This document shows positions 13,708 through 63,185 of a stretch of 64,000 bases of DNA, one piece after another (positions within the stretch are counted from its first letter, which is position 1; every line of letters begins with the position of its first letter). The translations under genes were made by a program, and so were the position numbers. The notes beneath the pieces were generated by a model that was not told the DNA's origin, made no database searches, and saw nothing but the letters and a program-made list of their open reading frames with translations. The DNA is from Candidatus Magasanikiibacteriota bacterium (GTDB lineage Bacteria > Patescibacteriota > Patescibacteriia > Magasanikbacterales > UBA922): positions 30,069-94,068 of the forward strand of contig JBAYVA010000004.1 of assembly GCA_041674805.1 (NCBI GenBank), in the 5' to 3' direction.

Positions 13708-13717
13708 TTTAAAAAAT

Positions 13718-27819: not shown

Positions 27820-28836
27820 ATGCGTAAAGCACTAATAACCGGTATCACCGGACAAGATGGATCTTATTTAGCAGAATTATTGCTAGAAAAAGGTTATGAA
27901 GTACATGGTATTATTCGTCGTTCTAGTAGTTTTAATACGGAAAGAATAGATCATATTTATCGTGATAAACATGAAAAAGGTGTTAAATTATTTTTGCATT
28001 ATGGTGATTTGACAGATAGTAGCAATGTTAGTCGTATTTTGGAAGAAGTAAAACCTGATGAAATATACAATTTGGGAGCACAGAGTCATGTGCGTGTAAG
28101 TTTTGATTTACCAGAGTACACAGCTGATGCTGATGGTTTGGGAACATTACGTTTACTTGATGCTATTCGTGACAAAGGTATGGATGTAAAATTTTATCAA
28201 GCAGGAAGTTCAGAAATGTTTGGCAAAGTTTTGGAAATTCCACAAAAGGAAACAACAGCATTTTATCCTCGTAGTCCATATGCTTGTGCCAAAGTTTATG
28301 CTCATCATATTGCTGTTAATTATCGTGAAAGTTACAATATGTTTGTTTGTAACGGAATACTATTTAATCATGAATCTCCTCGTCGTGGTGGCACTTTTGT
28401 TACCAAAAAAATTGTGGATGCTTTCAAAAATATCAAAGAAGGAAAACAAGAAAAATTGTATTTGGGTAATCTAGAAGCCAAGCGTGATTGGGGTTATGCT
28501 TGTGATTATGTAGAAGCTATGTGGATGATGCTTCAACAAAAAGAGGCTGATGATTATGTCATTGCTACTGGCGAAACTCATAGTGTGCGTGAATTTGTGG
28601 AGGAATCTGCTCCTTATTTTGGTTTTGCTATTGAGTGGAAGGGAAGTGGTATGAAAGAAAAAGGAATTGATAAAAATAGTGGTAAAGTTTTGATTGAAAT
28701 AGATGAACAATATTTTCGTCCAGCAGAAGTAGATTTGCTATTGGGAGATGCTAGTAAGGCTAAAGAAAAATTGAATTGGGTACCAAAAACTAAGTTCAAA
28801 GAGTTGGTGAGTATTATGTGTGAGGAAGAAAAATAA
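27820..28836 (+). CDS. gmd: GDP-mannose 4,6-dehydratase
   Basis: [42 protein letters not shown] is near-identical in pattern to E. coli Gmd. Confidence 0.9.
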
Positions 28837-29002: not shown

Positions 29003-29959
29003 ATGAACTATTTATCAAAAATTTATGTAGCTGGACATAATGGAATGGTAGGTTCTGCTATTTTGCGTTTACTTGAAAAACAAGGTTATACAAATATTAT
29101 TATACGTACGAGAGAAGAACTTGATCTGACAAATCAGCAATCTGTGGCAGATTTTTTTGCAACAGAAAAACCAGAATATGTGATTCTGGCAGCTGCCAAA
29201 GTGGGGGGAATTATGGCCAACAATACTTACCCAGCAGATTTTCTCTATCAAAATTTACAAATTCAAAATAATGTAATTCACAATGCCTATTTGAGTGGCG
29301 TGAAGAAGTTGTTGTTTCTTGGATCTTCTTGTATTTATCCAAAGAATTGTCCGCAACCCATGAAAGAAGAATATTTATTGACTGGACTTTTGGAAGAGAC
29401 AAACGAACCTTATGCGATTGCCAAGATTGCGGGAATAAAAATGTGTCAAAGTTACAATAGACAATATGGCACAAATTTTATTGCGGTCATGCCGACCAAT
29501 CTTTATGGGGAGAATGATAATTTTGATTTGAATAATTCTCATGTTTTACCAGCTTTACTTCGCAAGTTTCACGAAGCAAAAATAAATAATTTGTCAGAAG
29601 TAGAAGTGTGGGGTACAGGTACACAAAGACGGGAATTTTTGTATGTGGATGATATGACGAAAGCTTGTCTTTTTGTCTTACAAAATTTTAGTCCAACTAA
29701 GGACCAAAATGAAAATGGCGATATATTTTTTAATATTGGGACTGGAATGGATCTTACTATTCTAGAATTAGCAGAAATGATCAAGAAAATAGTTGGTTTT
29801 GAAGGAAATATAGTTTTTGACACTACTAAACCTGATGGAACTTTGCAAAAACTCTTGGATGTAACAAAAATAAATAACTTAGGTTGGAAAGATGAAAGTA
29901 GTCTAGAAGAGGGTATAAAACAGGTTTATGATTGGTATTTGGACCGTATTGACACCTAG
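29003..29959 (+). CDS. fcl: GDP-L-fucose synthase (GDP-4-keto-6-deoxymannose 3,5-epimerase/4-reductase); a ColC-like alternative is possible
   Basis: IYVAGHNGMVGSAI, LAAAKVGGI.ANNTYPADF and NEPYAIAKIAGIK.C.SYNRQYG collinear with E. coli Fcl. Confidence 0.85.
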   Translation: MNYLSKIYVAGHNGMVGSAILRLLEKQGYTNIIIRTREELDLTNQQSVADFFATEKPEYVILAAAKVGGIMANNTYPADFLYQNLQIQNNVIHNAYLSGVKKLLFLGSSCIYPKNCPQPMKEEYLLTGLLEETNEPYAIAKIAGIKMCQSYNRQYGTNFIAVMPTNLYGENDNFDLNNSHVLPALLRKFHEAKINNLSEVEVWGTGTQRREFLYVDDMTKACLFVLQNFSPTKDQNENGDIFFNIGTGMDLTILELAEMIKKIVGFEGNIVFDTTKPDGTLQKLLDVTKINNLGWKDESSLEEGIKQVYDWYLDRIDT

Positions 29960-30391: not shown

Positions 30392-32212
30392 ATGAAAAAA
30401 ATAATTCAAAAATTTAATTTTTTATATAAAATTAATGATCTTTTCAATAAAAAAGAAAAAATACATTTTTTATTTGTTTTGATTTTGTCGATTATTTCGT
30501 CTTTATTTCAAGCTTTGGGAATTATTTCTATACTTCCTTTTATGAGTATAATAATGAATTCAGATTTAATATACTCAAATTTTTTTTATTTTTATGTTTA
30601 TAATTTATTTAATTTTACAAGTGAAGGTTCTTATATATTTTTTGTAGGTTTATTTGTTTTATCAATTATTATACTTGGTAATTTAATTTCAGCTTTAAAT
30701 ATTTGGGTTAAAACATCTTTCATTTGGGGTAAAGAGCATAAGTTGTCAGTTTCTTTGTTGAAAAAATATTTGTCTCTCCCTTACATTTATTTTTTGGATA
30801 GAAACACTGCAGATTTGGGGAAAAATATATTGGTTGAAGTTGGAAATCTTATGAATGGTTTTCTTTTTCCATTTTTAAGAATATTATCTGATATAATAAT
30901 GATTTTGGTTATTTTGGCAACTCTTCTTTTTGTTAATTTTAAAATTACTTTAATTGCCTCTGTTGTTTTGATAACAGCTTATGTCATAATATATATTATG
31001 ATTTCTTTTAAATTAAAGAGCAAGGGTGTAGAACGTTTAGAAGAAAATAAAAGACGTTTTGAAACAGCCAATGAGGCATTGGGTGGAATAAAGGATGTAA
31101 AGCTTCTGGGTAGAGAATTATATTTTTTACATAGATTTTCTAAACATTCTCATAAATATTCTCAACTTATTATGTGGAGTGATGTAGTTGGACAAACACC
31201 TCGATATATAATGGAGATCTTTGCCTTTGGTGGAGTTATTACGTTAATTTTGTTTCTGTTTTCTTCTGGTTTTTTGATAAATGAAATTATTCCTTTGGTT
31301 AGTTTTTTTGTTTTTGCTGGTTATCGCTTAATGCCAGCATTGCAAGATGCATTTAATTCTTTTACTGTTTTTCGGTTTAATAAGGTTGTTTTGGACAGTA
31401 TACATAAAGATATGTTGGAGGATGGTATATATAAAGAAAAAAAAATTCTTAATGAAGAAAATTTAAAATCTATGATTTTTGAAAATGAAGTAGCTTTAGA
31501 AAATATTAATTTTCATTATCCTAATACACACAAAAAAGTGTTGAATGGTATAAGTTTAAATATAAAAAAGAAAACCTCTATTGCTATTGTTGGGTCTACT
31601 GGTTCAGGAAAAACAACTTTAGTTGATATTATTTTAGGACTTTTGAGTCCTCAGGAGGGACAAATTAAAATTGATGGTGTAGAAATAAATTATTCTAATA
31701 TTAGAAATTGGCAGGCTAATTTGGGCTATGTTCCACAACAAATATATCTTTCTGATGATACTTTAACTAGAAATATTGCTTTTGGAGTGCCAGATCATTT
31801 GATTGATAATGAACAAGTTAAAATGGTGGCTAAGATGGCTAGTATTGATGATTTTATTGAGAATGATCTTAAGGATTCATATAATACTATTATCGGAGAG
31901 AGGGGGATTAGGTTGAGTGGTGGACAAAGACAAAGAATAGGTATCGCAAGAGCTTTATATAATGATCCTAAAGTTCTTGTATTTGATGAGGCTACTAGTT
32001 CTTTGGATAATGTGACAGAAGACGCCGTACTAGATTCTATAGAAAGAATTTCAAAGTTTAAAACTATGATAATAGTTGCACATAGATTAACAACCATTAA
32101 AAAATGTGATATTGTATATTTATTAGATAAAGGTAAGCTTGTGGCTAGCGGAACCTATGAAGATCTAATAAAGACAAATGATCAATTTAAAATTATGGCA
32201 AAGAAATTTTAA
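30392..32212 (+). CDS. ABC exporter, fused permease/ATP-binding protein (MsbA-like)
   Basis: Six N-terminal TM helices; Walker A GSTGSGKTT, signature LSGGQRQR, Walker B VLVFDEATS. Confidence 0.8.
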   Translation: MKKIIQKFNFLYKINDLFNKKEKIHFLFVLILSIISSLFQALGIISILPFMSIIMNSDLIYSNFFYFYVYNLFNFTSEGSYIFFVGLFVLSIIILGNLISALNIWVKTSFIWGKEHKLSVSLLKKYLSLPYIYFLDRNTADLGKNILVEVGNLMNGFLFPFLRILSDIIMILVILATLLFVNFKITLIASVVLITAYVIIYIMISFKLKSKGVERLEENKRRFETANEALGGIKDVKLLGRELYFLHRFSKHSHKYSQLIMWSDVVGQTPRYIMEIFAFGGVITLILFLFSSGFLINEIIPLVSFFVFAGYRLMPALQDAFNSFTVFRFNKVVLDSIHKDMLEDGIYKEKKILNEENLKSMIFENEVALENINFHYPNTHKKVLNGISLNIKKKTSIAIVGSTGSGKTTLVDIILGLLSPQEGQIKIDGVEINYSNIRNWQANLGYVPQQIYLSDDTLTRNIAFGVPDHLIDNEQVKMVAKMASIDDFIENDLKDSYNTIIGERGIRLSGGQRQRIGIARALYNDPKVLVFDEATSSLDNVTEDAVLDSIERISKFKTMIIVAHRLTTIKKCDIVYLLDKGKLVASGTYEDLIKTNDQFKIMAKKF

Positions 32213-32233: not shown

Positions 32234-33010
32234 ATGAAAGTAGTTATATTATGTGGTGGTTTAGGAACCCGTTTAAAAGAAGAAACTGAATTTAGACCAA
32301 AGCCGATGGTCCCTATTGGTAATAAACCTATTTTGTGGCATATTATGAAGATATATGCTCACTATGGTTTTAGTGACTTTATTTTAGCTCTTGGTTATAA
32401 AGGTGATACAATCAAGGAGTATTTTAATAACTATGAGTTAATGAATAATGATGTGACTCTTGAGTTAGGTAGACCAGAAAATCGTATAGTTTACCAGAAT
32501 CATAAAGAGATTGGTTGGAAAGTTACTTTGGCTGATACAGGTCAGTATTCTTTAAAAGGAGCTAGACTAAAAAAACTGGAAAAATATATTGAAGATGATG
32601 AATTCATGGTGACTTATGGTGATGGTGTCGCAGATATTAATATTGAAGAGCTTTTAAAATTTCATCGTAGTCATGGAAAGATGGTAACTGTAACTGGTTC
32701 TATTCCTTCATCTCAATTTGGAAAATTAACTATACAAGAAAATGATACTGTGAATTTTAATGAAAAACCAAAAGCTGATTCATATATAAATGGTGGTTTT
32801 TTTGTTTTTAATAGATCAATTTTTGAATATCTTACGACTGAAGATAGTTGTGATTTAGAATATGGGGTTTTAGAAAAACTTTCCCAATCTGGTGAAATTA
32901 AAGTTTATAAGCATAATAATTTTTGGGCGAACATGGATACCTTTAGAGATATGGAATATTTGAATAAATTATGGAATGAAGGTAATGCAAAATGGAAAAT
33001 TTGGAGTTGA
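32234..33010 (+). CDS. rfbF: glucose-1-phosphate cytidylyltransferase
   Basis: MKVVILCGGLGTRLKEETEFRPKPMVPIGNKPILWHIMKIY collinear with Salmonella RfbF/DdhA. Confidence 0.85.
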   Translation: MKVVILCGGLGTRLKEETEFRPKPMVPIGNKPILWHIMKIYAHYGFSDFILALGYKGDTIKEYFNNYELMNNDVTLELGRPENRIVYQNHKEIGWKVTLADTGQYSLKGARLKKLEKYIEDDEFMVTYGDGVADINIEELLKFHRSHGKMVTVTGSIPSSQFGKLTIQENDTVNFNEKPKADSYINGGFFVFNRSIFEYLTTEDSCDLEYGVLEKLSQSGEIKVYKHNNFWANMDTFRDMEYLNKLWNEGNAKWKIWS

Positions 33011-33038
33011 AAAATGAGAAAATTAAAATGGCAAAAAT

Positions 33039-34091
33039 ATGGAAAATATTAAAAAAAGTTTTAAAAATAAAAAAATCCTAGTCACAGGTCATACTGGTTT
33101 TAAAGGATCCTGGCTTTCTCTTTGGCTCAAAGAACTAGGGGCGGATGTTAGTGGTTATTCTTTGCCACCAAAAAATAATCCTAATCTTTATTCTATTTTA
33201 AATTTAGATTTACCTGAAACTTTAGCTGATATTAATGATAAAAATTCTTTGTCTAGACATTTACAAAAGTATAAACCAGAAATAATTTTTCATTTAGCCG
33301 CACAACCTTTGGTTAGAGAGTCTTACAATGATCCTGTTGGTACTTTTCAGACAAATATTGCTGGTGTTTGGAATTTATTAGACTTGATTAAAAAAACTCC
33401 AAGTGTTAAAGTAGTTGTCGTAGTTACTACTGACAAATGTTACAAAAATAATGAAAATGGTGTTCCCTTTGTTGAAACGGATCCTTTGGGGGGGTATGAC
33501 CCCTACTCAGCCTCTAAAGCTTGTGTTGAAATAATTTGTGAGTCATGGAAATCATCATTTTTATCGGAACAAGGTGATCCTGTATTAGCTACTGTAAGAG
33601 CCGGTAATGTTATAGGTGGAGGAGATTGGTCTACTGATAGATTAATTCCTGATTGTATTAGATCTTTTATTTCCAATGAGTTTGTTAACATTAGATATCC
33701 AAATTCTGTAAGACCTTGGCAACATGTTTTAGAAGCTTTGTATGGATATATTATTTTAGCAGAAAAACTCTATAATTTTGGTAATAAATATTCTGGTGCT
33801 TGGAATTTTGGACCAAATATGGAAAATCAAGCAACAGTTGGTGATGTTGTTTCTATTGCTTCTGAATTATGGGGTACAAAAAACGTTTTTAAAAAACAAT
33901 CAATAAATAATCTTCATGAAGTTGAATTGCTTAGGTTGGACATTACTAAAGCTACTAAGGAATTAGATTGGAGACCACGTTGGGACATTAATCAGACATT
34001 ATCTGAAACAGTAGAATGGTATAAAAAATGGCATCAAGGTGATGACATGTTAATATATACAATAAATCAAATAAAAAAATATGGAATGTAA
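33039..34091 (+). CDS. rfbG: CDP-glucose 4,6-dehydratase
   Basis: ILVTGHTGFKGSWLSLWL and YSASKAC (YxxxK) SDR motifs, with RfbG-like length. Confidence 0.8.
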   Translation: MENIKKSFKNKKILVTGHTGFKGSWLSLWLKELGADVSGYSLPPKNNPNLYSILNLDLPETLADINDKNSLSRHLQKYKPEIIFHLAAQPLVRESYNDPVGTFQTNIAGVWNLLDLIKKTPSVKVVVVVTTDKCYKNNENGVPFVETDPLGGYDPYSASKACVEIICESWKSSFLSEQGDPVLATVRAGNVIGGGDWSTDRLIPDCIRSFISNEFVNIRYPNSVRPWQHVLEALYGYIILAEKLYNFGNKYSGAWNFGPNMENQATVGDVVSIASELWGTKNVFKKQSINNLHEVELLRLDITKATKELDWRPRWDINQTLSETVEWYKKWHQGDDMLIYTINQIKKYGM

Positions 34092-35292
34092 ATCTTGCAA
34101 GTCATTAATAATTGAATTTTTTTCTTTAGGCCAAATGCCTTTAGTTAATTCTTTTTTGAAAAAAGATGAGTTGTCTACAGAAGAAAAATTTGATTTGAGA
34201 GTTGGCTTTTGTACAAAGTGTTATCTTGTTCAATTAATTACGGTAGTACCTCCTGAAAGGTTGTTTAGAGATTATGTTTATTTTTCTTCTACGTCTAAGT
34301 CTTTTTTAGAACATTGTCAAGAAACTTCTGAATATTTAACAAAAAGATTGGGTTTGAATTCTAAAAGTTTAGTAATGGAGATAGCTAGTAATGATGGATC
34401 TCAATTAAAGTTTTTTAAAAATTTAGGTATTTCAATATTAGGAGTTGATCCTGCTATTAATATCTCAGAGATAGCAAATAAAAATGGGATCCCTACAATT
34501 CCAGAATTTTTTAATTATAATTTTGCTAAAAAATTAAAAGAAAATGATGGGATAGAAGCGGATCTAATTCTTGGAGCAAATGTTTTGGCACATGTACCTG
34601 AAATAGTTGATTTTGTTAAAGGTGTTAAGATTATTTTGAAACAAAATGGTACAGCTGTATTTGAGTTTCCTTATTTAAAGGGTTTGATAGAAAAAAAATT
34701 TGATACTATTTATCATGAACATGTTTATTATTATTCTCTAATAGCTTTAATAAATCTTTTTAATCAAGCTGATTTGGAAATTTATGATGTAGAAATAACC
34801 TCTATGCAAGGAGGATCCCTAGAAATTTTTGTTTCACATCCTGGTAGTTATAAAATAAGTAGTAATATTAAGAATTTAGTTGATAAAGAATTTGAATTTG
34901 GATTTGATAAAATTGAAACATATCAAAAAATAAACAGTGATGTTAAAAGTTTAAAAAAAGATCTTGTTTCTTTTCTTGATAAATTAAAAAAAGAAGGTCA
35001 TAAAATAGCTGCTTATAGTGCTCCAGCTAAAGGTAATATTCTTTTGAATTATTTTGGTATCAATAATAATTATATTGATTTCATAGTAGATAAATCGATA
35101 GCTAAACAGGGTTTATTCACACCTGGTACTCATTTAATGGTTTACTCACCTGAAAAAATTTATCAAGATAAACCAGATTATCTTTTAATTTTGTGTTGGA
35201 ACATAGCTGATGAAGTAATAGAACAATTAAATGAATATCAAAAAACTGGAGGTAAATTTATTATTCCAATACCAGATATAAAAGTAATATGA
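34081..35292 (+). CDS. NDP-hexose C-methyltransferase-like (zinc-ribbon + SAM MTase + C-methyltransferase C-domain)
   Basis: N-terminal CKSC...CTKC zinc ribbon, SAM motif I MEIASNDGS, and a TylC3/C-methyltransferase-like architecture. Confidence 0.55.
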   Translation: MECKSCKSLIIEFFSLGQMPLVNSFLKKDELSTEEKFDLRVGFCTKCYLVQLITVVPPERLFRDYVYFSSTSKSFLEHCQETSEYLTKRLGLNSKSLVMEIASNDGSQLKFFKNLGISILGVDPAINISEIANKNGIPTIPEFFNYNFAKKLKENDGIEADLILGANVLAHVPEIVDFVKGVKIILKQNGTAVFEFPYLKGLIEKKFDTIYHEHVYYYSLIALINLFNQADLEIYDVEITSMQGGSLEIFVSHPGSYKISSNIKNLVDKEFEFGFDKIETYQKINSDVKSLKKDLVSFLDKLKKEGHKIAAYSAPAKGNILLNYFGINNNYIDFIVDKSIAKQGLFTPGTHLMVYSPEKIYQDKPDYLLILCWNIADEVIEQLNEYQKTGGKFIIPIPDIKVI

Positions 35293-35822
35293 AGTTCAAA
35301 GAGACTAAATTAAAAGGTCTTTATATTATTGAGCCTGAACTTAAAATTGATGAAAGGGGCTATTTTATGAGGACTTTCTGTATAGAAGAATTAAAGAAAA
35401 ATGATCTACAATTTACAGTTACACAAGTAAATCAAACCTTAACAAAAAAAAAGGGGACTATTCGTGGAATGCATTTTCAAAAATCATCAAAAGCGGAAGA
35501 TAAAATTGTTCAATGTTTGCGAGGTGCTATATATGATGTTGCTATTGATTTGCGTGAAGATTCAATAACTTATGGTCAGTGGGTTGCTGAAGAATTAACA
35601 GAAAATAATAAAAAATTGTTTTTAATACCTAAAGGTTTTGCTCATGGTTTCCAAACATTAACTGATAATTGTGAACTTCAATATTTTATGTCGGAATACT
35701 ACTCACCGGAGTATGCATCTGGTGTACTTTGGAACGACCCACTTTTTGATATATCATGGCCAATAAAAAAAATATTTCTTTCAGAAAAAGATAAAAAGTG
35801 GAATTTATTAAAAAAAGTATGA
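35289..35822 (+). CDS. NDP-4-keto-6-deoxy-sugar 3,5-epimerase (RmlC-like cupin)
   Basis: RmlC-family pattern ...RGMHFQ... with His/Tyr catalytic context; ATGA overlap with the next gene. Confidence 0.7.
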   Translation: MKFKETKLKGLYIIEPELKIDERGYFMRTFCIEELKKNDLQFTVTQVNQTLTKKKGTIRGMHFQKSSKAEDKIVQCLRGAIYDVAIDLREDSITYGQWVAEELTENNKKLFLIPKGFAHGFQTLTDNCELQYFMSEYYSPEYASGVLWNDPLFDISWPIKKIFLSEKDKKWNLLKKV

Positions 35823-36691
35823 AAAGAATTTTATTGATAGGAAAATTTGGACAATTAGCTACTGAAATTATAAAACATTCTGTTTATTTTGATTTTGATG
35901 TTGTGAGTTTTAGTAAAGAGGAACTAGATGTCAGTGACATAATTCAAGTTGAAAAAAAAATAATTGAAATTAAACCAGATATATTAATTAACACTTCTGC
36001 CTATCATGTGGTAACAAATTGTGAAGAAAATCCAGCAGTTGCCATGGAAATTAATTTTATTGCTGTGAGAAATTTAGCTAAAATTTGTTTAGATCAAAAT
36101 ATTACCTTTGTTACTTATAGTACGGATTATGTTTTTGATGGCAAAAAAAAAGTACCTTATGAAGAAAATGATAGAACAAACCCACTTCAAACATATGGAT
36201 TTTCTAAACTTGCAGGGGAATATGCTGCTTTAAAAACTCATCCTGATAAAACATTTGTTATTAGAACTAGTGGTGTTTATGGAGGAAAAAATGGTAGTCA
36301 TGAAAAAAAAGGTAATTTTGTTTTAAATATTATTAAAGAGTTACAAGATAAAAATATTATTGAAGTTAGTTCTGAACAATTTGTTAGTCCTACTTATGCT
36401 GTTGATTTGAGTATTTCTACTTTAAAATTATTAAATAGTAATGCTGAAGCTGGTATATACCATTTGGTTAATGAAGGATTGTGTAGTTGGTATGAGTTTG
36501 CACAAGAAATTATTAAATTGTCTAAAATAAATAAAAAAATAAAACCTGTTGATAGAGGTGGCTTAACTAAAAAAATGAAACGTCCTAAATTTTCAGCTTT
36601 AAAAAATAGTAAAGCTAAGTCATTAGGTATAGAATTACCTCCTTGGCAGGAAGGTTTAAAAAAATATTTATATGATTTGTCCAATTTGTAA
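35819..36691 (+). CDS. NDP-4-keto-6-deoxy-sugar 4-reductase (RmlD-like)
   Basis: RmlD substrate-binding-domain pattern (LLIGKFGQLATEI; YSTDYVFDG; YGFSKLAGE). The start is taken at MKRIL, overlapping the upstream stop. Confidence 0.65.
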   Translation: MKRILLIGKFGQLATEIIKHSVYFDFDVVSFSKEELDVSDIIQVEKKIIEIKPDILINTSAYHVVTNCEENPAVAMEINFIAVRNLAKICLDQNITFVTYSTDYVFDGKKKVPYEENDRTNPLQTYGFSKLAGEYAALKTHPDKTFVIRTSGVYGGKNGSHEKKGNFVLNIIKELQDKNIIEVSSEQFVSPTYAVDLSISTLKLLNSNAEAGIYHLVNEGLCSWYEFAQEIIKLSKINKKIKPVDRGGLTKKMKRPKFSALKNSKAKSLGIELPPWQEGLKKYLYDLSNL

Positions 36692-37793
36692 AGATACTAA
36701 TCCACAATTTATTTTTAATTTTTTTGATAGTCCTGCAATGCAAAATAAATTGCACGTTACTCTTGAGAGTGCTTTGATGGAAGAAAAAGTTTCTGTTAAT
36801 CTTTATGGGTGTAATGAATGTGGTTTTGTTTTTAATGCGGATTTTATTGATAAAAAAACGGAATATTCTTCAATTTATGATAATACACAAGATGATTCTA
36901 TTTATTTTCAATCTTATTTGATTAAACTTGCAGAAAGACTTGATAAAAAATATCAGTTATTTGATAAAAAAGTGGTTGAAGTAGGATGCGGAAAGGGGCA
37001 TTTTATCAAAATTATTTATGATTTGGGTGTAAAAAATATTAGAGGCTATGACCCTTCATATATTGATTATAATAAAAATATTGATAGATTAGTAATAAAA
37101 AAATTTTTTGATGATAAAAATGTCGATGAAAAAGTTGATTTTATTATTTGTAGGCATGTTTTAGAACATATTAAAAATCCAGATTTGTTTGTATTCTCTA
37201 TTGAAAAATGTTTGAATGTTGGAGGTTCTATGTATTTTGAATTTCCTTCTTTAGAGTGGATTGTTAAAAATGAAGTTTTTTTTGATTTTTTTTATGAACA
37301 TTGTAATTATTTTTCAAAGAGATCATTATCTTTTTTGTTTAATAAAATAGGATTGGGTAATATAGTTTTTAACTATGGGCTTGATGGACAATATTTTCAA
37401 CTTGATATTAGCCGTGGAAAATGTAGTGACTTAAAATTATTAGATTTGATTAATTTTGATGATATTTCTAATTTTTTATCTAATAAGATAAATGAATATA
37501 AAAAAATGGTTGAAGAAATGGGTACTTTTATTGTATGGGGTGCTGGGGCAAAAGGGGTTACATTTCTTAATAGGCTAAATATTTCTGTTGAAAAATGTCA
37601 GTATGTTATAGATATTAATTTAAATAAACAGAATAAGTTTATTCCTATAACAGGTCAAGAAATAGTTTCACCTAAGATTCTTAAAAAAATAGATGTTAAT
37701 ACTATTATTGTTATGAATCCTGTATATGAAGAGGAAATTAAAAAAATGGCATCTTCTTTTGGTTATAATGGAAAATTTATTTTATTGCATTAG
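36672..37793 (+). CDS. second C-methyltransferase-like protein (zinc ribbon + SAM MTase)
   Basis: CPICK...CNECGF zinc ribbon; SAM motif VVEVGCGKGHF. Confidence 0.5.
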   Translation: MICPICKDTNPQFIFNFFDSPAMQNKLHVTLESALMEEKVSVNLYGCNECGFVFNADFIDKKTEYSSIYDNTQDDSIYFQSYLIKLAERLDKKYQLFDKKVVEVGCGKGHFIKIIYDLGVKNIRGYDPSYIDYNKNIDRLVIKKFFDDKNVDEKVDFIICRHVLEHIKNPDLFVFSIEKCLNVGGSMYFEFPSLEWIVKNEVFFDFFYEHCNYFSKRSLSFLFNKIGLGNIVFNYGLDGQYFQLDISRGKCSDLKLLDLINFDDISNFLSNKINEYKKMVEEMGTFIVWGAGAKGVTFLNRLNISVEKCQYVIDINLNKQNKFIPITGQEIVSPKILKKIDVNTIIVMNPVYEEEIKKMASSFGYNGKFILLH

Positions 37794-37847
37794 TTAATAT
37801 TTTTTTTATATTAAATAAGTTGAATTATTAATAATAATTTTTAAATT

Positions 37848-38603
37848 ATGAATAACGATCAGTTGGAAAAATTTAAAGATGAATCATCTAAAAGGATTTT
37901 ATCTTATGAAAATAATCATAGTTTACAAGAGTCTCGTAAAATATTGTTTGAAGAGATGAATAAAGTAAAATATTTTTATAATTTTTTTTGGCTAGGTGTT
38001 CCAATTATTCAATCACCTCAAGATATGCAAGCTTGGCAAGAAATTGTTTGGGAAGTTAAACCTGATTTAATTATAGAAACAGGGATTGCTTGGGGTGGTT
38101 CAATTCTTTTTAGTGCTTCTTTATTAAAATTGTTAGAAGTTTGTGGTGAAATAGAGAATGGTGAAGTTATTGGAATTGACATTGATATTCGTTCTCACAC
38201 TAAAGATATTATTAATAATCACCCAATGAGTAAATGTATTACTATGTTTGAGGGATCAAGTGTAGATAATAAAATTCTAGAAAAAATTAAACATATTGCT
38301 GGCAGCAAAAAGAGAATTTTAATTATGTTGGATAGTAATCATACACATGAACATGTTTTGGCAGAACTTAAAACTTATGCACCTTTAGTTAGTTTAGGAA
38401 GTTATATCATAGCTCAGGATACTATAGTTGAAGATTTGTCAGATGATTGTGTGGTTGATCGCCCTTGGTGTAAAGGTAATAATCCTAAAACTGCAGTTTT
38501 TGAATTTTTAAAGAATAATAGTGATTTTGAAATAGATAAAAATATTGAATCAAAAATTATGTTAACAAATTCTCCTGATGGGTTTTTAAAGAGAATAAAG
38601 TAA
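37848..38603 (+). CDS. CmcI/cephalosporin-hydroxylase-family sugar O-methyltransferase-like
   Basis: FWLGVPIIQSPQDMQAWQEIVWEVKPDLIIETGIAWGGS matches the CmcI-family rhamnosyl O-methyltransferase pattern. Confidence 0.6.
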   Translation: MNNDQLEKFKDESSKRILSYENNHSLQESRKILFEEMNKVKYFYNFFWLGVPIIQSPQDMQAWQEIVWEVKPDLIIETGIAWGGSILFSASLLKLLEVCGEIENGEVIGIDIDIRSHTKDIINNHPMSKCITMFEGSSVDNKILEKIKHIAGSKKRILIMLDSNHTHEHVLAELKTYAPLVSLGSYIIAQDTIVEDLSDDCVVDRPWCKGNNPKTAVFEFLKNNSDFEIDKNIESKIMLTNSPDGFLKRIK

Positions 38604-38604
38604 T

Positions 38605-39468
38605 ATGGAAGAAAAAAGTCAAAAGTTAGTTAGTGTAGGAATTCCAACTTATAATAGACCTGAAGGGTTGAAAAGAGTATTGGAATGTATAACTAATCAG
38701 TCTTACAAAAATTTAGAAATTATTGTTTCTGATAATTGTTCTTCTTACTCGGAAGTTGTAGAAGTTCTTCTTGAATTTTCTGCAAAAGATAAAAGAATTA
38801 AATACTTTATTCAAAAAGAAAATAAAGGTGTTTCTTTTAATTTTGATTTTGTTCTTAAAAAAGCAACTGGTGAATATTTTATGTGGGCATCAGATGATGA
38901 TGAATGGGAAAATAATTTTATTGAAGTATGCGTTAATTTGTTGGAAGAAAATAAAAATGCAGGAGTAGCTTTTTCTAACATTGTTAATATAGATTCTTTT
39001 AACCATATTGTAAGAACATATCCGTCTTTTAAAAAGTTTACTATTAAAAATAATTTTTTTAGAATAATAAAATACGTATTGGATCCAGAAATATTAGGAA
39101 AGGCCAATATTATTTATGGTCTTTACAGAATAGATGTATGTAAAATGGCATGGAATATTTGCCCTTTAAATGAAAAATGGGGGTCTGATATGGCGTTTGT
39201 ATTAGCCACACTTAGCCGCTTTCATATGTGTATTGATGATAGAATTCTTTTTAAGAAAAGAATAGTAAAAGATTCTGAAGATAAAAACTATGCTTCTAAG
39301 ATTAATATTTTGCATCCATGGCGAAGTATTTTCCCTTTTGATAAGTTTATTGAATATACAGTAGAAATGAAAAAAGGCGTTAGTGGAACCAAGTACTCGT
39401 TTTTAGTTGTTTTTTTATTATTAATTCGTTTGCCTCAATCATTTTTAAACAAGTATTTGGGGAGTTAA
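38605..39468 (+). CDS. family 2 glycosyltransferase
   Basis: VSVGIPTYNRPEGL...IIVSDNCS GT2 DxD context. Confidence 0.7.
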   Translation: MEEKSQKLVSVGIPTYNRPEGLKRVLECITNQSYKNLEIIVSDNCSSYSEVVEVLLEFSAKDKRIKYFIQKENKGVSFNFDFVLKKATGEYFMWASDDDEWENNFIEVCVNLLEENKNAGVAFSNIVNIDSFNHIVRTYPSFKKFTIKNNFFRIIKYVLDPEILGKANIIYGLYRIDVCKMAWNICPLNEKWGSDMAFVLATLSRFHMCIDDRILFKKRIVKDSEDKNYASKINILHPWRSIFPFDKFIEYTVEMKKGVSGTKYSFLVVFLLLIRLPQSFLNKYLGS

Positions 39469-39480: not shown

Positions 39481-40656
39481 ATGATACCATTAATGAAATA
39501 TGCTTTTTTGAATGAGTTTGAAACTAAAAAAGCATTAGCAGATTTTATTTTAAAGACAGACCGTTTGAGTATGGACGTACAATGTTCAGAATTTGAAAAA
39601 AAATTTGCTTCTTTCCAAGGAAGTAACGATTCTATTCTTTTTAATAGTGGTGGAAGTGCAAATTTGGCAATTATACAGTCTTTAAAAAACTTAGGAATAC
39701 TAAAAGAAGGAGATAAAGTGGGATTTTCTGCGCTGACTTGGTCAACCAATATAATGCCTATAATCCAGCTTGGTCTTATTCCTGTACCTATAGATTGCAA
39801 TATTAATACTCTTAATGTTATGTCGTCTGATTTGGAAGATAGAATTAGAGAAACTTCTTTGAAGGTTTTGTTTTTGACTAACGTTTTAGGATTCGTCGGG
39901 GATATCTCCAAAATAAAAGAAGTATGTAATAAAAATGATATTATTTTATTGGAAGATAACTGTGAAGCATTAGGGACTGAATTGCCAGAAGGGAAAACTG
40001 GAACTTTTGGGTTGTGTGCTAGTTTTTCTTTTTTTGTTGCTCACCATATGTCTTCTATAGAAGGTGGTATGGTGTGTACTAATAATGAAGAATTGGCTGA
40101 AATGTTAAGAATAGTGCGTGCTAATGGTTGGGATAGAAATTTAACAGCTCAACAACAATATAAATGGAGAAAAAAATTTAATATAAATTCAGAATTTGAA
40201 GCAAAATACACTTTTTATGATTTGGGATTCAATATGAGACCTACTGAAATAACAGGTTTTCTAGGTTCATATCAGCTTCAATTTTTAGAAGATAATATAA
40301 AAGCTAGAGAAAAAAATTATTTGTTAATTGAAAAAATCGTAAAAGATAACGATGATCTTGTTACATTAACACATGATCATATAAAATGTCTTTCAACTTT
40401 TGCTTTGCCTGTGGTCTGTAAGAGTCATGAGCTAAGAGAACACTATTTGGCTAGATTTGCCGGAGCTGGTATAGAAGTGAGGCCAATGATAGCAGGGAAT
40501 ATGCAGCGTCAGCCTTTTTATTATAAGTATGTAAAAGAAAAATACAATGTACCAAATACAGATTTTATTCATGATAATGGATTTTATTGTGGTAATTATC
40601 CAGAACTTACAGAAACAGATTTACAAACAATTTCAAGTTGTTTGTTAAAATATTAA
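39481..40656 (+). CDS. colD: ColD-like NDP-4-keto-6-deoxyhexose 3-dehydratase (DegT/AHBA-synthase fold with active-site His)
   Basis: Collinear with E. coli ColD: SWSTN, NTLN, EDNCEALGT, GTFGLCASFSFFVAHHMSSIEGGMVCT (His in place of the aminotransferase Lys), RANGWDRNL. Its 391 aa is about the same as ColD (388 aa). It lacks the Cys cluster of RfbH/E1. Confidence 0.6.
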   Translation: MIPLMKYAFLNEFETKKALADFILKTDRLSMDVQCSEFEKKFASFQGSNDSILFNSGGSANLAIIQSLKNLGILKEGDKVGFSALTWSTNIMPIIQLGLIPVPIDCNINTLNVMSSDLEDRIRETSLKVLFLTNVLGFVGDISKIKEVCNKNDIILLEDNCEALGTELPEGKTGTFGLCASFSFFVAHHMSSIEGGMVCTNNEELAEMLRIVRANGWDRNLTAQQQYKWRKKFNINSEFEAKYTFYDLGFNMRPTEITGFLGSYQLQFLEDNIKAREKNYLLIEKIVKDNDDLVTLTHDHIKCLSTFALPVVCKSHELREHYLARFAGAGIEVRPMIAGNMQRQPFYYKYVKEKYNVPNTDFIHDNGFYCGNYPELTETDLQTISSCLLKY

Positions 40657-40659: not shown

Positions 40660-41532
40660 ATGATTGTTGTAAGATTAATAGGTGGATTAGGAAATCAACT
40701 TTTTCAATATGCTCTGGCAAGAAAACTTTCTGTTCATTTAGATACCAAAGTTGTTTTGGATATAACTCCTTATAAAAAATATAAATTACACAAATACGGA
40801 CTTGATAATTTCAATATTTGTTCTAAAATAATATCTGGCAGAGAGAAAATTTTTTGGTATTTTAAAAAAATAATATTATTTGATAAAATATTTTGCATAA
40901 TATCAAAAAAATTTCGTAATGCCATATATATTACTGAACAGCAATTTAATTTTGATAAAAAAATATTTTTAGATTCAAAAAAAGATACCTATTTGGATGG
41001 TTATTGGCAGAGTGAAAAATATTTTTTAGATATTAGAAAAAATCTTTTAGGTGATTTAATTGTTTCTAAACAAATAGAAGGTAAAAATTTGGAATTGTCA
41101 AAACAGATTAATAGTGTAAATTCAATATCTTTACATGTGCGTAGAGGTGATTATGTTTCTAATATTAAAACAGCGCAAGTGCATGGTGTTTGTTATTTAA
41201 ATTATTATTATAATGCGATTGATTTTTTATCAAAAAGAATTGAAAATCCTGTATTATTTATTTTTTCTGATGATATAGAATGGGTTAAAGAAAATTTAGA
41301 AACAACTTTAAAATGTATTTACGTTGAAAATAATAGTGCTAATTTTAATTATGAAGATTTAAGATTGATGAGTTTGTGTAAACATAATATTATTGCTAAT
41401 AGTTCTTTTAGCTGGTGGGGTGCTTGGCTTAACAATAATCCAGACAAAATAGTTGTTGCTCCTAAAAAGTGGTTTAATGATTCTTCAATTAATACAAAAG
41501 ACTTATTACCAGACGATTGGGTAAAAATATAA
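40660..41532 (+). CDS. GT11 alpha-1,2-fucosyl(colitosyl)transferase
   Basis: GT11 motif I IGGLGNQLFQYALARKL and C-terminal motifs. Confidence 0.7.
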   Translation: MIVVRLIGGLGNQLFQYALARKLSVHLDTKVVLDITPYKKYKLHKYGLDNFNICSKIISGREKIFWYFKKIILFDKIFCIISKKFRNAIYITEQQFNFDKKIFLDSKKDTYLDGYWQSEKYFLDIRKNLLGDLIVSKQIEGKNLELSKQINSVNSISLHVRRGDYVSNIKTAQVHGVCYLNYYYNAIDFLSKRIENPVLFIFSDDIEWVKENLETTLKCIYVENNSANFNYEDLRLMSLCKHNIIANSSFSWWGAWLNNNPDKIVVAPKKWFNDSSINTKDLLPDDWVKI

Positions 41533-43263: not shown

Positions 43264-43989
43264 ATGCAAAACAAAAAAATAGGTATTTTAGGTTATGGAG
43301 AAATTGGTCATGCTATGGCTAAATTTTACAAAAAACCATTGATTAGGGATATAGAAATAAATACTTTTCAAGAAAATTTGGACATCCTTCATGTTTGTTT
43401 GCCATATTTAAAAAATTTTGAAGAGGTTGTTTCATATAATATTGTTACTTATAAACCAAAAATAGTTATTATCCATTCTACAATTGGGCTTGGAAGTACT
43501 TTGAATTTATACAAAAAATTTGGCAATGTGGTACATTCTCCTGTCCGTGGGGTACATCCTTATTTGTATGAAGGTATAAAAACTTTTGTTAAATATATTG
43601 GAGCTGATGATAGAAAATTAGGTATGAAAGTAGCACGACATTTTAGGTCTATTGGTATAAATAATCTAAAAGTTTTAGGAAGTTCAAAATCTAGTGAACT
43701 TGGGAAATTATTAGACACAACTTATTACGGACTTTGTATTGCTTATCATGATTATGCTAATAAGATTTGTGTTGAAGAAAAAGTTGACTTTGAAGAAGTT
43801 ATGTCAGATTTTAATACAACTTATAATGATGGTTATAAAAAATTAAAAAAAGAAAATGTTATTAGACCAGTTTTGTTTCCACCCAAAGATGGTAAAATAG
43901 GTGGACATTGTATAATGCCTAATGCTCAAATATTAAAAAAAATATTTGGCGACGATGCTATTTTGAAAGCCATACTTAGACACGAATAA
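43264..43989 (+). CDS. Rossmann-fold NAD(P)-binding protein of unknown function
   Basis: N-terminal IGILGYGEIGHAMA dinucleotide-binding motif. Confidence 0.4.
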   Translation: MQNKKIGILGYGEIGHAMAKFYKKPLIRDIEINTFQENLDILHVCLPYLKNFEEVVSYNIVTYKPKIVIIHSTIGLGSTLNLYKKFGNVVHSPVRGVHPYLYEGIKTFVKYIGADDRKLGMKVARHFRSIGINNLKVLGSSKSSELGKLLDTTYYGLCIAYHDYANKICVEEKVDFEEVMSDFNTTYNDGYKKLKKENVIRPVLFPPKDGKIGGHCIMPNAQILKKIFGDDAILKAILRHE

Positions 43990-50133: not shown

Positions 50134-51140
50134 TGAAATATTTAATCACCGGCGGTGCTGGCTACATTGGTAGTCATGTCGTCAAACAATTGATTGACAA
50201 AAAAAACGATATTGTAATTGTAGATAATTTGTCTACTGGTTTACAAAAAACTATCAATACTTTGAAAAAATACGCTGACACCAAAAAAGTAAAATTAAGT
50301 TTTTATAAACTTGATTTGGCTGATAGCAAAAAATTGGAAACTGTTTTTGCCAAAGAAAAAGTTGCAGGTGTAATACATTTTGCTGCGAGTATTGTCGTGC
50401 CAGAATCAGTGATTGACCCTTTGAAATATTATGCTAATAATACGAGTAATACAATTAATTTGATCAAAGCTTGTTTGAAATATAAAGTAAACAAATTTAT
50501 TTTTAGTTCTACTGCTGCTGTCTATGGCGAGCTTGATGCAAAATATATTCCAGCCAAAGAAGATGGACCTGTTTCTCCTATCAATCCTTATGGACAAAGC
50601 AAACTTTTCAATGAAAAGATTATTCAAGATGTAGCTTTTGCTAATTCAAAATTTAAATATGTTATCTTGCGTTATTTCAATGTAGCTGGCGCCTGTCTAG
50701 ATGGCAGTATCGGACAGTCAAGTGAGAAAGCTACTTTACTAGTAAAAGTTTGTGCTGAAGTGGCACTTGGTAAACGCAAAAAATTAACATTATTTGGTAC
50801 TGATTACAAAACACCAGATGGTACTGCTATTCGTGATTATATTCACGTGGATGATTTGGCTTCTGCTCATATCAAAGCTTTGTCTTATTTGAACAAAAAT
50901 AAAAGTGATATTTTCAATTGTGGTTATGGCAAAGGTTTTTCTGTGCAAGAGGTCATAGATATGATGAAAAAAGTCAGTGGAGTTGATTTCAAAGTAGAAA
51001 AAGCAGGAAGACGTCCGGGTGATCCTGCTGTTCTTATTTCTGATAATAGTAAGATAAAAAATAAGATGGACTGGCAACCTAAGTATGATGATTTAGAAAT
51101 TATTTGTCGCACAGCGCTTGAGTGGGAGAAGAAAATTTAG
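50133..51140 (+). CDS. galE: UDP-glucose 4-epimerase
   Basis: ITGGAGYIGSHV, the YGQSKLFNE (YxxxK) motif and GalE length. Confidence 0.85.
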   Translation: MKYLITGGAGYIGSHVVKQLIDKKNDIVIVDNLSTGLQKTINTLKKYADTKKVKLSFYKLDLADSKKLETVFAKEKVAGVIHFAASIVVPESVIDPLKYYANNTSNTINLIKACLKYKVNKFIFSSTAAVYGELDAKYIPAKEDGPVSPINPYGQSKLFNEKIIQDVAFANSKFKYVILRYFNVAGACLDGSIGQSSEKATLLVKVCAEVALGKRKKLTLFGTDYKTPDGTAIRDYIHVDDLASAHIKALSYLNKNKSDIFNCGYGKGFSVQEVIDMMKKVSGVDFKVEKAGRRPGDPAVLISDNSKIKNKMDWQPKYDDLEIICRTALEWEKKI

Positions 51141-51148
51141 TTATCAAA

Positions 51149-51178
51149 AGAGGTGTGTAAAAACACCTCTTTTTTTAT
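51149..51178 (+). terminator. rho-independent terminator after galE (end of glycan locus)
   Basis: Hairpin gaggtgt-gtaaaa-acacctc followed by TTTTTTT. Confidence 0.7.
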
Positions 51179-51226
51179 AAATAATAATTTGTTATAATGG
51201 AAATATAATTTATATAAATAAAATAT

Positions 51227-51844
51227 ATGGAGGAAAACAAAAAAAGATTTTTTAAATTAGACATATTTTTTTGGTTATTTTTGCTAGCTGTGGCTGGTTA
51301 TTTTTTTTTGAAGAGTGCACCGCAGGCGACAGCACCAGATGATGAAAGTATGGTGACAAGTACTAGTGAGGTGAGTGCTGATTTACCAGAGGGTGTGACA
51401 GTGGAAAATTTGGGAGATGGTAATAAGTTGGTTAAGAATGAAAAGAATGATTATACTTTAAAAGTTAATGATGATATTTATTTGTATAAAGATTTTGAAG
51501 GAGATTTGAGAGTGCAAAATTATGAACAACCAAAAGAAGCTTATGGTGGTTCCCCTGGTTGTAGTGTTTCTATAACTCTTTTTCCTATAAAAACACAAGA
51601 AGAACTTAGAATTGAAGAAGAAAATAATTGTAAAAATATAATAGGTTTTGATTGTAAATCAGTACATGTAGAACAATTAAAATATAATAATATTGATTGG
51701 ATTAAAATTTATTCCCATGGTACTTATGTAGGTACAGATAATCCTTTAATTGTTACTAATAGAGAAGATAGTATGATAGGTCTATATTTTTCTTGTTCTA
51801 ATAAAAATTTTGTAGATAATATATTAAATAATTTTTCATTTTAA
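51227..51844 (+). CDS. hypothetical secreted/membrane-anchored protein
   Basis: N-terminal hydrophobic segment FFWLFLLAVAGYFFL; no known domain. Confidence 0.5.
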   Translation: MEENKKRFFKLDIFFWLFLLAVAGYFFLKSAPQATAPDDESMVTSTSEVSADLPEGVTVENLGDGNKLVKNEKNDYTLKVNDDIYLYKDFEGDLRVQNYEQPKEAYGGSPGCSVSITLFPIKTQEELRIEEENNCKNIIGFDCKSVHVEQLKYNNIDWIKIYSHGTYVGTDNPLIVTNREDSMIGLYFSCSNKNFVDNILNNFSF

Positions 51845-51854
51845 ATACAAAAAT

Positions 51855-55694: not shown

Positions 55695-55825
55695 ATATAT
55701 TAGTGAAATTTTTATGTATATTTAAGCTCCAAAATTCAGCTTGAAGCGATTTTGTTTTTAGAGTATAATTACTATCGTAAAATTTAAGATCATAAATCCT
55801 AAATTAAAAATCAGATTTTTGATTA

Positions 55826-55875
55826 AACCTATTTTTACCTAGTACCTAACACCTAATATCTAAAACCTAAAAAAA
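55826..55875. repeat. ACCTAA-type roughly 7-bp tandem repeats immediately upstream of pyk
   Basis: aaacctatttttacctagtacctaacacctaatatctaaaacctaaaaaaat runs into the ATG. Confidence 0.45.
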
Positions 55876-55876
55876 T

Positions 55877-57313: not shown

Positions 57314-57318
57314 AGTAA

Positions 57319-57362
57319 AGGCATAAAATGCCCGAAAGGCAAGAAAGGCTAGTAACCTACAT
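57319..57362. repeat. AAAGGC-type phased repeats after pyk (reverse orientation of the GCCTTT family)
   Basis: aaaggcataaaatgcccgaaaggcaagaaaggctag. Confidence 0.45.
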
Positions 57363-57494
57363 ATAAATAAAAGAATTAGATTTTATAAATAATAATCAGT
57401 TTAAATATATAAAAAATAAACGTGGTGAAATCGTTTTTCTATTTTTTAAATTAATCAAGTCCTTGGAAATCCAAAAGGATTAGTCAAACTCGTA

Positions 57495-57539
57495 AAAGCC
57501 TTTTAGGCCTTTTGGGCATTTTAAGCATTTCAAGCCTTA
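57495..57539. repeat. phased GCCTTTT-type 9-bp repeats upstream of ppsA
   Basis: aaagcctttt aggcctttt gggcatttt aagcatttc aagcctta; closely related to 48686-48724. Confidence 0.55.
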
Positions 57540-57547
57540 TTACTATT

Positions 57548-57576
57548 TTGTAAATTTTCATTTTTTGTGCTATAAT
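57548..57576 (+). promoter_or_regulatory. candidate promoter for ppsA: TTGTAA-17-TGcTATAAT (extended -10)
   Basis: TGCTATAAT at 57568-57576 with a -35-like TTGTAA at 57548-57553; about 30 nt before the ATG. Confidence 0.45.
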
Positions 57577-57604
57577 AAAAACATCTAATTTTTAACTATT
57601 TTTT

Positions 57605-60763: not shown

Positions 60764-60781
60764 TGTTTATTTTATATAATT

Positions 60782-60822
60782 AAAAACGGTTTCTTGTTCT
60801 AAGAGACCGTTTTTTTTGTTTT
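60782..60822 (+). terminator. rho-independent terminator after ppsA
   Basis: Hairpin aacggtttc-ttgttctaa-gagaccgtt followed by TTTTTTTGTTTTT. Confidence 0.65.
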
Positions 60823-60860
60823 TGATATTTTGGATAATAAAAATGATTGTATTAGCAGAG

Positions 60861-60953
60861 TAAGCAAAATAAGCAAATTTAAGTGTAAACCTAGTAAGCT
60901 TTGTAAGCCTTGTAGGCGCCTTGTGAGCCTTGTAATCTTACGTCTTGCAAATC
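60861..60953. repeat. about six degenerate tandem roughly 9-bp repeats (TAAGCCTTG family) upstream of trhO
   Basis: agtaagctttg taagccttg taggcgccttg tgagccttg taatcttacg tcttgcaaatc. Confidence 0.5.
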
Positions 60954-60998
60954 ATACCATTTTGGTATATAATAGGAGTGTTTTTTATTAATAATAAT

Positions 60999-62015: not shown

Positions 62016-62051
62016 AAAATAAATTTGCTTGAATTTTTAATTTATATATAA

Positions 62052-62083
62052 AAAAACTCCACTAATTTTAGTGGAGTTTTTTC
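62052..62083. terminator. bidirectional terminator (trhO / tRNA-Asp convergent)
   Basis: Hairpin aactccact-aatttt-agtggagtt with A/T runs on both sides. Confidence 0.65.
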
Positions 62084-62087
62084 AAAG

Positions 62088-62161
62088 CGGACCGGACGAG
62101 GCTCGAACTCGCAACTTCTGCCGTGACAGGGCAGTGCTCTAACCAGTTGAACTACCGGTCC
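62088..62161 (-). tRNA. tRNA-Asp (anticodon GUC)
   Basis: Acceptor GGACCGG/CCGGTCC, D arm TAGTTCAACTGGTTAGAGC, anticodon loop CUGUCAC, T-loop GTTCGAGCC. Confidence 0.85.
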
Positions 62162-63176: not shown

Positions 63177-63185
63177 TTATTGTAT

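Follow-up and report, generated by a model that had tools for sequence, protein, structure and literature searches.

The sugar dehydratase ColD removes the 3-hydroxyl group en route to colitose, a bacterial surface sugar. ColD (WbdK) is the guanosine diphosphate (GDP)-4-keto-6-deoxy-D-mannose 3-dehydratase of Escherichia coli O55 and O111 and of Yersinia pseudotuberculosis. Here we describe a relative of ColD encoded in a 64,000-nucleotide stretch of contig JBAYVA010000004.1 (assembly GCA_041674805.1) from Candidatus Magasanikiibacteriota, a candidate phyla radiation (CPR) bacterium. This whole stretch is referred to as the window, and positions are those of the window unless another locus is named. 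The gene in question, an intact and full-length open reading frame (ORF) at 39481..40656 on the plus strand, encodes a DegT-family protein of 391 amino acids. We propose, with a probability of about three in four, that this protein is a ColD-type GDP-sugar 3-dehydratase that works toward GDP-L-colitose together with the GDP-sugar genes of its cluster.

Three described enzymes, ColD, the cytidine diphosphate (CDP)-pathway dehydrase E1 and SpnQ, form a Schiff base between pyridoxamine phosphate (PMP) and the sugar; an active-site His then takes the C4' proton of PMP, and the 3-hydroxyl is expelled (PMC8987622). In ColD the enamine is hydrolysed, ammonia and the 4-keto-3,6-dideoxy sugar are released and PMP is regenerated with glutamate, whereas E1 and SpnQ reduce the intermediate through their own [2Fe-2S] cluster and a reductase (PMC8987622). 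The exchange of the Schiff-base Lys for His is the main difference of these 3-dehydratases from aminotransferases (PMC8987622). Pyridoxal phosphate (PLP)- and L-glutamate-dependent chemistry on GDP sugars has also been described for the Campylobacter jejuni GDP-heptose C3-dehydratases (PMC10440746).

An earlier note on this DNA, made from the letters alone, had proposed that a His replaces the Schiff-base Lys in the target protein, that the protein is collinear with ColD and that it lacks the Fe-S cysteines of RfbH (E1). Comparison with both enzymes bore out all three points. The strings GTFGLCASFSFFVAHHMSSIEGG, LLEDNCE and RANGWDRNL, on which the note relied, are all found in the translation of 39481..40656, and residues 22-374 align to the ColD chains in the PDB. 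In this chain alignment the first H of AHH in the target falls on the first H of SHH in ColD, which is precisely where the H188N and H188K mutant chains of ColD (3b8x, 2r0t) differ from the wild type. A MAFFT alignment likewise equates His188/His189 of the target with His188/His189 of ColD and His220/His221 of E1; the Schiff-base position is therefore held by His188 (codon at about 40042-40044), which carries the same residue number in ColD. The same alignment with ColD and RfbH, a check that the note had suggested, revealed neither a Schiff-base Lys nor the C-X57-C-X-C-X7-C motif: the E1 Fe-S ligands C251, C253 and C261 are replaced by R219, L221 and W229, and only the fourth ligand, C193, is retained, as it also is in the cluster-free ColD. 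Both His188 and the loss of the C251/C253/C261 ligands are the same in all 120 closest homologues. An N-terminal MIPLMK, conserved in the 391-residue homologues, argues for the start at 39481.

The His also bears on whether the protein might be an ordinary DegT-family sugar aminotransferase, as automatic NCBI-style names suggest. Residues 18-388 do match Pfam DegT_DnrJ_EryC1 (PF01041; E = 3.9e-59), and homologues are named 'DegT/DnrJ/EryC1/StrS family aminotransferase', but RefSeq gives the authentic E. coli ColD that same generic name, and the target and all 120 homologues have His in place of the Schiff-base Lys. We rejected the aminotransferase assignment on the latter ground and consider it barely credible.

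Among all PDB chains, a phmmer search with the target ranked ColD first (192.5 bits), ahead of E1 (151.9 bits) and perosamine synthase (99 bits). The best match was ColD entry 2gms (E = 1.1e-55); the four E. coli ColD entries (2gms, 3b8x, 2r0t, 3gr9) occupied the top of the ranking with E values of 1e-55 to 5e-54 and scores of ~190 bits, followed by two Yersinia E1 entries (~150 bits) and then by perosamine synthases (~99 bits). A neighbour-joining (NJ) tree places the target family and E. coli ColD as sisters, with E1 apart from them. A fold search would not separate ColD from E1, because the two share the fold. W88, N160, E162, W217, R219, R250, P251, E329 and P332 are common to the target family and ColD and different in E1. 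The ColD residues D159, E162, W88, R219, N248, R250 and R331 are conserved in the target and its family; R219 and R331 are presumably pyrophosphate contacts in the ColD structure. Against the RfbH model (NCBIfam NF011936, cut-off 423) the target scored 224.6 bits, well under the cut-off, and the authentic E. coli ColD was likewise under it with 260.8 bits. NCBIfam seemingly has no curated ColD model, and E. coli ColD matches only the RfbH model, below its cut-off.

The target does resemble E1 (RfbH/DdhC/AscC, the CDP-6-deoxy-L-threo-D-glycero-4-hexulose 3-dehydrase; PDB 3bb8, 3bcx) in its DegT fold, in its His for Lys with an identical AHH, and in having CDP-glucose pathway genes near it in the window. 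It differs in sequence (~25% identity), in length (46 residues shorter, without the N-terminal extension of E1), in the absence of C251/C253/C261, in the GDP-type context of its family and in having no E3 in the window: no E3-like reductase with Fer2, FAD_binding_6 and NAD_binding_1 domains was found among the window ORFs of at least 140 residues. A true E1 was rejected on the basis of the missing Cys motif, the lack of an E3, the shorter length and the RfbH score under the cut-off. SpnQ (TDP-4-keto-2,6-dideoxyglucose 3-dehydrase) is also a His-type DegT 3-dehydratase (PMC8987622); it bears a [2Fe-2S] cluster and depends on reductases of the ferredoxin or flavodoxin type, unlike the target, which is without the Cys motif. 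With ColD, in contrast, the target shares the fold, the length (388-391 residues), the number of His188, the absence of an Fe-S motif, the linkage to gmd and to an Fcl-superfamily 5-epimerase/4-reductase, and the precedent of a GT11 colitosyltransferase. The differences from ColD are that position 187 is Ala, as in E1, and not Ser; that the target belongs to a separate subfamily with 70-80% identity across phyla, whose usual partner is an Fcl-sister clade and not the classical ColC; and that its partner in the window is a canonical Fcl encoded 9.5 kb away.

These comparisons suggest the following route. An enzyme of the aspartate aminotransferase fold, with PMP and with His188 instead of Lys, would expel the 3-hydroxyl of a GDP-4-keto-6-deoxyhexose, most likely GDP-4-keto-6-deoxy-D-mannose supplied by the Gmd encoded 10 kb upstream. 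Because there are no E1 Fe-S ligands and no E3 is encoded nearby, the enamine would presumably be hydrolysed to GDP-4-keto-3,6-dideoxy-D-mannose and ammonia, and PMP would be regenerated from PLP with L-glutamate in the fashion of ColD. It is the ColD route that is supported, since the His is present, the cluster ligands are absent and an E3 is lacking nearby. C5 epimerisation and C4 reduction would then be carried out by an Fcl-superfamily enzyme, for which a single canonical Fcl is the only candidate here. The outcome would be GDP-L-colitose or a closely related 3,6-dideoxy-L-hexose, and the GT11 enzyme encoded 3 nt downstream may add the resulting sugar to a glycan.

The nucleotide carried by the substrate, which the earlier note had left as a question, appears to be largely settled in favour of GDP by comparative gene context. 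The target subfamily is very large and strongly conserved, with thousands of database matches; the best 120 homologues are 71-100% identical to the target and nearly all 386-392 residues long, and their source names include Bacteroidia, Cyclobacteriaceae, Chitinophagaceae and Burkholderiales. Loci were gathered from genomes (10 loci), metagenomes and single look-ups, and homologues of the window genes were placed on them by tblastn; after de-duplication, 32 distinct loci carried a homologue of at least 45% identity, 31 of them with at least 1 kb of flank. Linkage of the family to Fcl/ColC, gmd and GT11 is conserved. Of the 31 loci, 22 have an Fcl/ColC-type gene no more than 400 bp from the ColD-like gene and 25 have one no more than 10 kb away; over the latter distance, gmd occurs in 11 loci and GT11 in 12, where GT11 is often 4-24 bp downstream. 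By comparison, rfbF/rfbG were found within 10 kb in one locus out of 31. This single locus, L013 from Burkholderiales, also encodes a 437-residue E1 of its own (68% identity to Yersinia E1, 713 bits) in which the cysteine ligands of the Fe-S cluster are retained, implying that where it co-occurs with the family, the CDP 3,6-dideoxy pathway brings its own E1.

The CDP genes of the window lead to the same conclusion. According to the earlier note, the target sat inside a CDP-sugar sub-cluster. This placement did not hold: the target follows the last gene (GT2, 38605-39468) of a conserved CDP module and stands at its 3' junction. We probed the module with the window C-methyltransferase and examined four relatives on long contigs (L052-L055). 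Three of them, L052, L054 and L055, which are mostly Patescibacteria-like loci, again have the cassette rfbF-rfbG-C-methyltransferase-RmlC-like-RmlD-like-(methyltransferase)-CmcI-GT2, with core genes 66-80% identical; in L053, a variant, an aminotransferase takes the place of the reductase and GT2 is not adjacent. Within 10 kb of the C-methyltransferase probe gene, all four loci lack a ColD-like gene. Since the cassette recurs without a ColD-like gene, the target lies at the junction between the module and GT11 and not within the CDP pathway. The module at 32234-39468 is evidently separate from the ColD pathway and needs no 3-dehydratase. GDP is thus favoured both because an Fcl/ColC-type gene is adjacent in 22 of 31 loci, against one locus with rfbF/rfbG and an E1 of its own, and because the CDP module is self-contained and is found elsewhere without a ColD-like gene.

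It is against this background that a CDP substrate has to be weighed. The target could be an Fe-S- and E3-independent 3-dehydratase for CDP-4-keto-6-deoxy-D-glucose whose product passes to the RmlC-like and RmlD-like enzymes and becomes an ascarylose-like CDP-3,6-dideoxy-L-hexose, with methylation as an option. The target lies in the same packed plus-strand array, right after the CDP module, with rfbF/rfbG 5.4-7.2 kb upstream; L013 likewise has rfbF/rfbG within 10 kb; and in the ascarylose pathway a 5-epimerase and a 4-reductase act after E1, which also counts for this possibility. However, the rfbF/rfbG association is confined to that one locus with its own E1, the CDP module lacked the ColD-like gene in all four sampled loci, the family has Fcl/ColC, gmd and GT11 as its conserved partners, enzymes of the GT11 type use GDP donors specifically, and the residues common to the target and ColD differ from those of E1. 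We therefore regard a CDP substrate as very unlikely. If it were true, it would amount to a previously unknown glutamate-driven route to CDP-3,6-dideoxyhexoses in a CPR bacterium.

GDP linkage leaves the identity of the sugar to be considered, and a ColD-type dehydratase might act on another GDP-4-keto sugar such as GDP-6-deoxy-4-keto-heptose, as in C. jejuni HS:5 and HS:11. In C. jejuni, characterised homologues carry out the same chemistry on GDP-heptose, deoxygenating C3 of the GDP-linked 4-keto sugar independently of Fe-S (PMC10440746). Their pathways use a separate RmlC-like (cupin) C5-epimerase and a separate C4-reductase, and both gene types occur in the window; the likeness drawn here is one of described chemistry and pathway, and the substrate is a heptose. 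Genes of the gmhA, hddA and hddC types for heptose nucleotides were not seen in the window, whereas gmd is present there and accompanies the family in 11 of 31 loci, and the RmlC-like and RmlD-like genes of the window belong to the conserved CDP cassette. A heptose substrate is thus highly improbable, and GDP-4-keto-6-deoxy-D-mannose remains our preferred candidate.

The gene immediately downstream is in accordance with this choice. The note had pointed to a GT11 gene next door, and rightly so: it starts 3 nt past the target stop, and its product is 40% identical over its full length (290 residues) to WbgN of E. coli O55. WbgN is a GT11 alpha-1,2-colitosyltransferase that uses GDP-beta-L-colitose or GDP-L-fucose and no donors with other nucleotides (PMC11987014). 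The window GT11 is therefore, judging by homology, probably a transferase for a GDP-L-deoxyhexose, namely colitose and/or fucose. In the database the O55 WbgN is named 'alpha-1,2-fucosyltransferase'.

The remaining step is the maturation of the dehydratase product. The earlier note had reported gmd and an fcl/ColC-like gene upstream, and both are present on the same strand 9.5-11.7 kb upstream of the target; the reductase, however, proved to be a canonical Fcl and not a ColC. An NJ tree of Fcl-like proteins, which the note had proposed for distinguishing the two, resolved three groups. Group A, canonical Fcl, contains E. coli Fcl, the window gene and the distal copy of L011; group B is an Fcl-sister clade, the usual neighbour of the ColD-like gene; and group C is the classical ColC, in which E. 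coli O111 ColC is joined by the partner genes of L004 and L005. The window gene groups with canonical Fcl and not with ColC. E. coli O111 (L016; ColC 13547-14470, ColD 14467-15633) and O55 (L056; WbgN 1769-2641, ColC 8081-9004, ColD 9001-10167) served as reference loci. Scores on the NCBI Fcl model, which has a cut-off of 500 bits, track this grouping: 497.8 bits for the window Fcl and also for the L027 neighbour, 483.6 bits for the L025 neighbour, about 418 bits for clade B, 310.6 bits for E. coli O111 ColC and 300.6 bits for L005. The window fcl product is 58% identical to E. coli Fcl (tblastn) and 38-41% to ColC, matches the PDB entry of E. coli GDP-fucose synthase (GFS) with E = 3.2e-121, and is encoded by the only Fcl/ColC-type gene in the window.

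Could a canonical Fcl nevertheless serve a ColD-like enzyme? By best match, the 22 adjacent partners comprise 12 of clade B, 7 canonical Fcl and 3 classical ColC, and gmd-fcl-ColD-like operons are present in L025 and L027, whose fcl products score 484-498 bits on the Fcl model; pairing with a canonical Fcl thus has natural precedent. S107, C109, Y136, K140 and H179 are all found in the window Fcl and are identical across the three groups. We accordingly rejected these catalytic residues as a discriminator between Fcl and ColC. The only recurrent difference seen was PCNLYG in clades B and C versus PTNLYG in canonical Fcl, including that of the window. This site corresponds to about residue 164 of E. 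coli GFS and could be a signature for 3-deoxy substrates.

These observations bear on a further explanation, that the ColD-GT11 pair arrived without the Fcl-sister or ColC gene that usually accompanies it, leaving the pathway incomplete or diverted: the dehydratase product would not be matured by Fcl, or another short-chain dehydrogenase/reductase (SDR) would turn it into a different 3,6-dideoxyhexose isomer, and GT11 would be mainly a fucosyltransferase using the GDP-fucose made by gmd and fcl. Among relatives on longer contigs, the nearest two (80% and 76% identity) each have the ColD-like gene (391 residues) in a trio with an Fcl-like gene (310-311 residues) and GT11 (289-291 residues), in both cases within a Wzm/Wzt-type polysaccharide cluster, and the Fcl-like gene with which this cassette starts is missing here. 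The window Fcl has PTNLYG and not the PCNLYG of ColC and the Fcl-sister clade, WbgN-type GT11 takes GDP-fucose as well as GDP-colitose, and GT11 without a ColD-like gene is seen in L052, a locus of Patescibacteria that shares the CDP module. Set against this, the ORF is intact and of full length with every conserved catalytic residue kept, seven related loci (such as L025 and L027) pair the dehydratase directly with a canonical-type Fcl, and the catalytic residues are the same in all Fcl clades including ColC. On balance, we consider an incomplete or diverted pathway unlikely.

Several points weigh against a complete colitose pathway built around the target. Its identity to the characterised E. 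coli O55 ColD is just 32% by BLASTP (Biopython 'identity' distances run above BLAST, here 40% versus 32%, and BLASTP and tblastn figures are preferred throughout), and the literature searched contained no assay of the 391-residue subfamily. The CDP genes are physically the nearest sugar-nucleotide genes to the target in the window, and manB and manC were not found among window ORFs of at least 140 residues. No dedicated ColC or Fcl-sister gene stands beside the dehydratase in the window. As the upstream gene is a canonical Fcl, the completion of colitose synthesis by this enzyme, which we infer, is the least secure part of the prediction.

The features of the cluster are compiled in Table 1. 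The genes from about 25.6 kb to 51 kb all lie on the plus strand with tiny gaps between them.

Table 1 Features of the sugar cluster around the ColD-like gene (window positions)
Feature	Position	Strand	Remarks
Wzy_C/TPR 'O-antigen ligase'-type protein	25655-27661	+	
gmd, GDP-mannose 4,6-dehydratase	27820..28836	+	NCBIfam TIGR01472 577.8 bits, cut-off 415
fcl, canonical-type GDP-L-fucose synthase	29003..29959	+	NCBIfam Fcl model 497.8 bits, cut-off 500
PglK/MsbA-like ABC exporter	30392-32212	+	
rfbF, glucose-1-phosphate cytidylyltransferase	from 32234	+	
rfbG, CDP-glucose 4,6-dehydratase	from 33039	+	
TylCIII-type C-methyltransferase	from 34081	+	
RmlC-like	from 35289	+	
RmlD-like	from 35798	+	
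Second methyltransferase	36672-37793	+	Methyltransf_23 and C-terminal half of C-methyltransferase domain Methyltransf_14
CmcI-type O-methyltransferase	from 37848	+	
GT2	38605-39468	+	last gene of CDP module
ColD-type PMP/PLP-dependent NDP-4-keto-6-deoxyhexose 3-dehydratase (predicted)	39481..40656	+	391 residues, His188, no [2Fe-2S] motif
GT11 glycosyltransferase	40660..41532	+	290 residues; Pfam Glyco_transf_11 (PF01531) E = 3.1e-44
Further glycosyltransferases and modifying enzymes	41536 onward	+	

The predicted product of the CDP cassette is a CDP-6-deoxy-C-methyl-L-hexose that is O-methylated too; we assume that it resembles the CDP-vinelose of Azotobacter. The second methyltransferase gene (36672-37793) is an insertion that separates the RmlD-like gene from CmcI. 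It has no counterpart in L052 and L054, and L055 has at this position a weak homologue (25% identity) and a radical-SAM/SPASM gene. An ORF further downstream (43264-43989, 241 residues) has no Pfam match and is weakly similar to nucleotide-sugar dehydrogenases (E = 1e-6); its 49%-identical homologue lies directly upstream of rfbF in L053. Wzy_C/TPR genes similar to that at 25655-27661 flank the CDP cassette in L052-L055. In the window, the Wzy_C/TPR protein and the PglK/MsbA-like exporter are found in a bacterium probably without an outer membrane, and they may serve protein or cell-wall glycosylation rather than a lipopolysaccharide O-antigen.

Two groups of related loci present further variations on the gene context. 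The Burkholderiales loci L013/L014/L015 carry, at 3018-9022, rfbF, rfbG, a true E1 (437-450 residues), an SDR and split transketolase-like N and C subunits, a gene set that suggests a pathway to a CDP-linked two-carbon-branched 3,6-dideoxyhexose (yersiniose-like) beside the ColD-like gene; they further contain a GT10 gene and a faint GT11 gene. In the CPR-type loci L007, L036 and L045 (47-51% identity) the ColD-like gene adjoins gmd and lies near TylCIII-type C-methyltransferases, with no rfbF/rfbG nearby, a context that hints at GDP-linked C-methylated 3,6-dideoxy sugars.

The affinities of the genes also inform on their origin. Among named relatives, those nearest to the ColD-like gene come from Bacteroidia/Cytophagales (up to 79% identity), and the CPR copies in L007, L009 and L010 are just 47-51% identical; the closest named relatives of the CDP module, on the other hand, are Patescibacteria. 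This disparity suggests that horizontal transfer brought in the ColD-GT11 pair, behind a CDP module that was already resident. The GC content is about 30% and shows no anomaly. Elsewhere in the window, the pyruvate kinase (55877-57313) is 81-83% identical to proteins from metagenome-assembled genomes of Candidatus Magasanikbacteria and then matches other Patescibacteria, and the flanks (1-25000 and 51000-64000) contain many large ORFs without a Pfam match, a TraG-like ATPase, a VanW protein and a 1279-residue C39-peptidase/LTD protein; these features point to a CPR bacterium as the most likely host.

Taken together, the target is a relative of ColD of the ordinary kind, and it belongs to an uncharacterised and commonly mis-annotated subfamily: JGI labels the 391-residue family 'CDP-6-deoxy-D-xylo-4-hexulose-3-dehydrase' or 'E1', and NCBI calls it a generic aminotransferase, but the sequence traits and neighbouring genes of this very widespread subfamily speak for a GDP-linked 3-deoxygenase of the ColD type. 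Nothing here overturns current understanding; the value of the analysis lies in annotation and in the prediction of a glycan. It also raises the question of whether the ColD-GT11 pair was taken by a CPR bacterium from Gram-negative donors. If the canonical GDP-fucose synthase also finishes colitose, one gmd-fcl pair together with ColD could give two donor sugars. More broadly, the subfamily implies that many environmental Bacteroidota, Planctomycetota, Elusimicrobia and CPR bacteria may carry colitose-like 3,6-dideoxy-L-hexoses on their surfaces.

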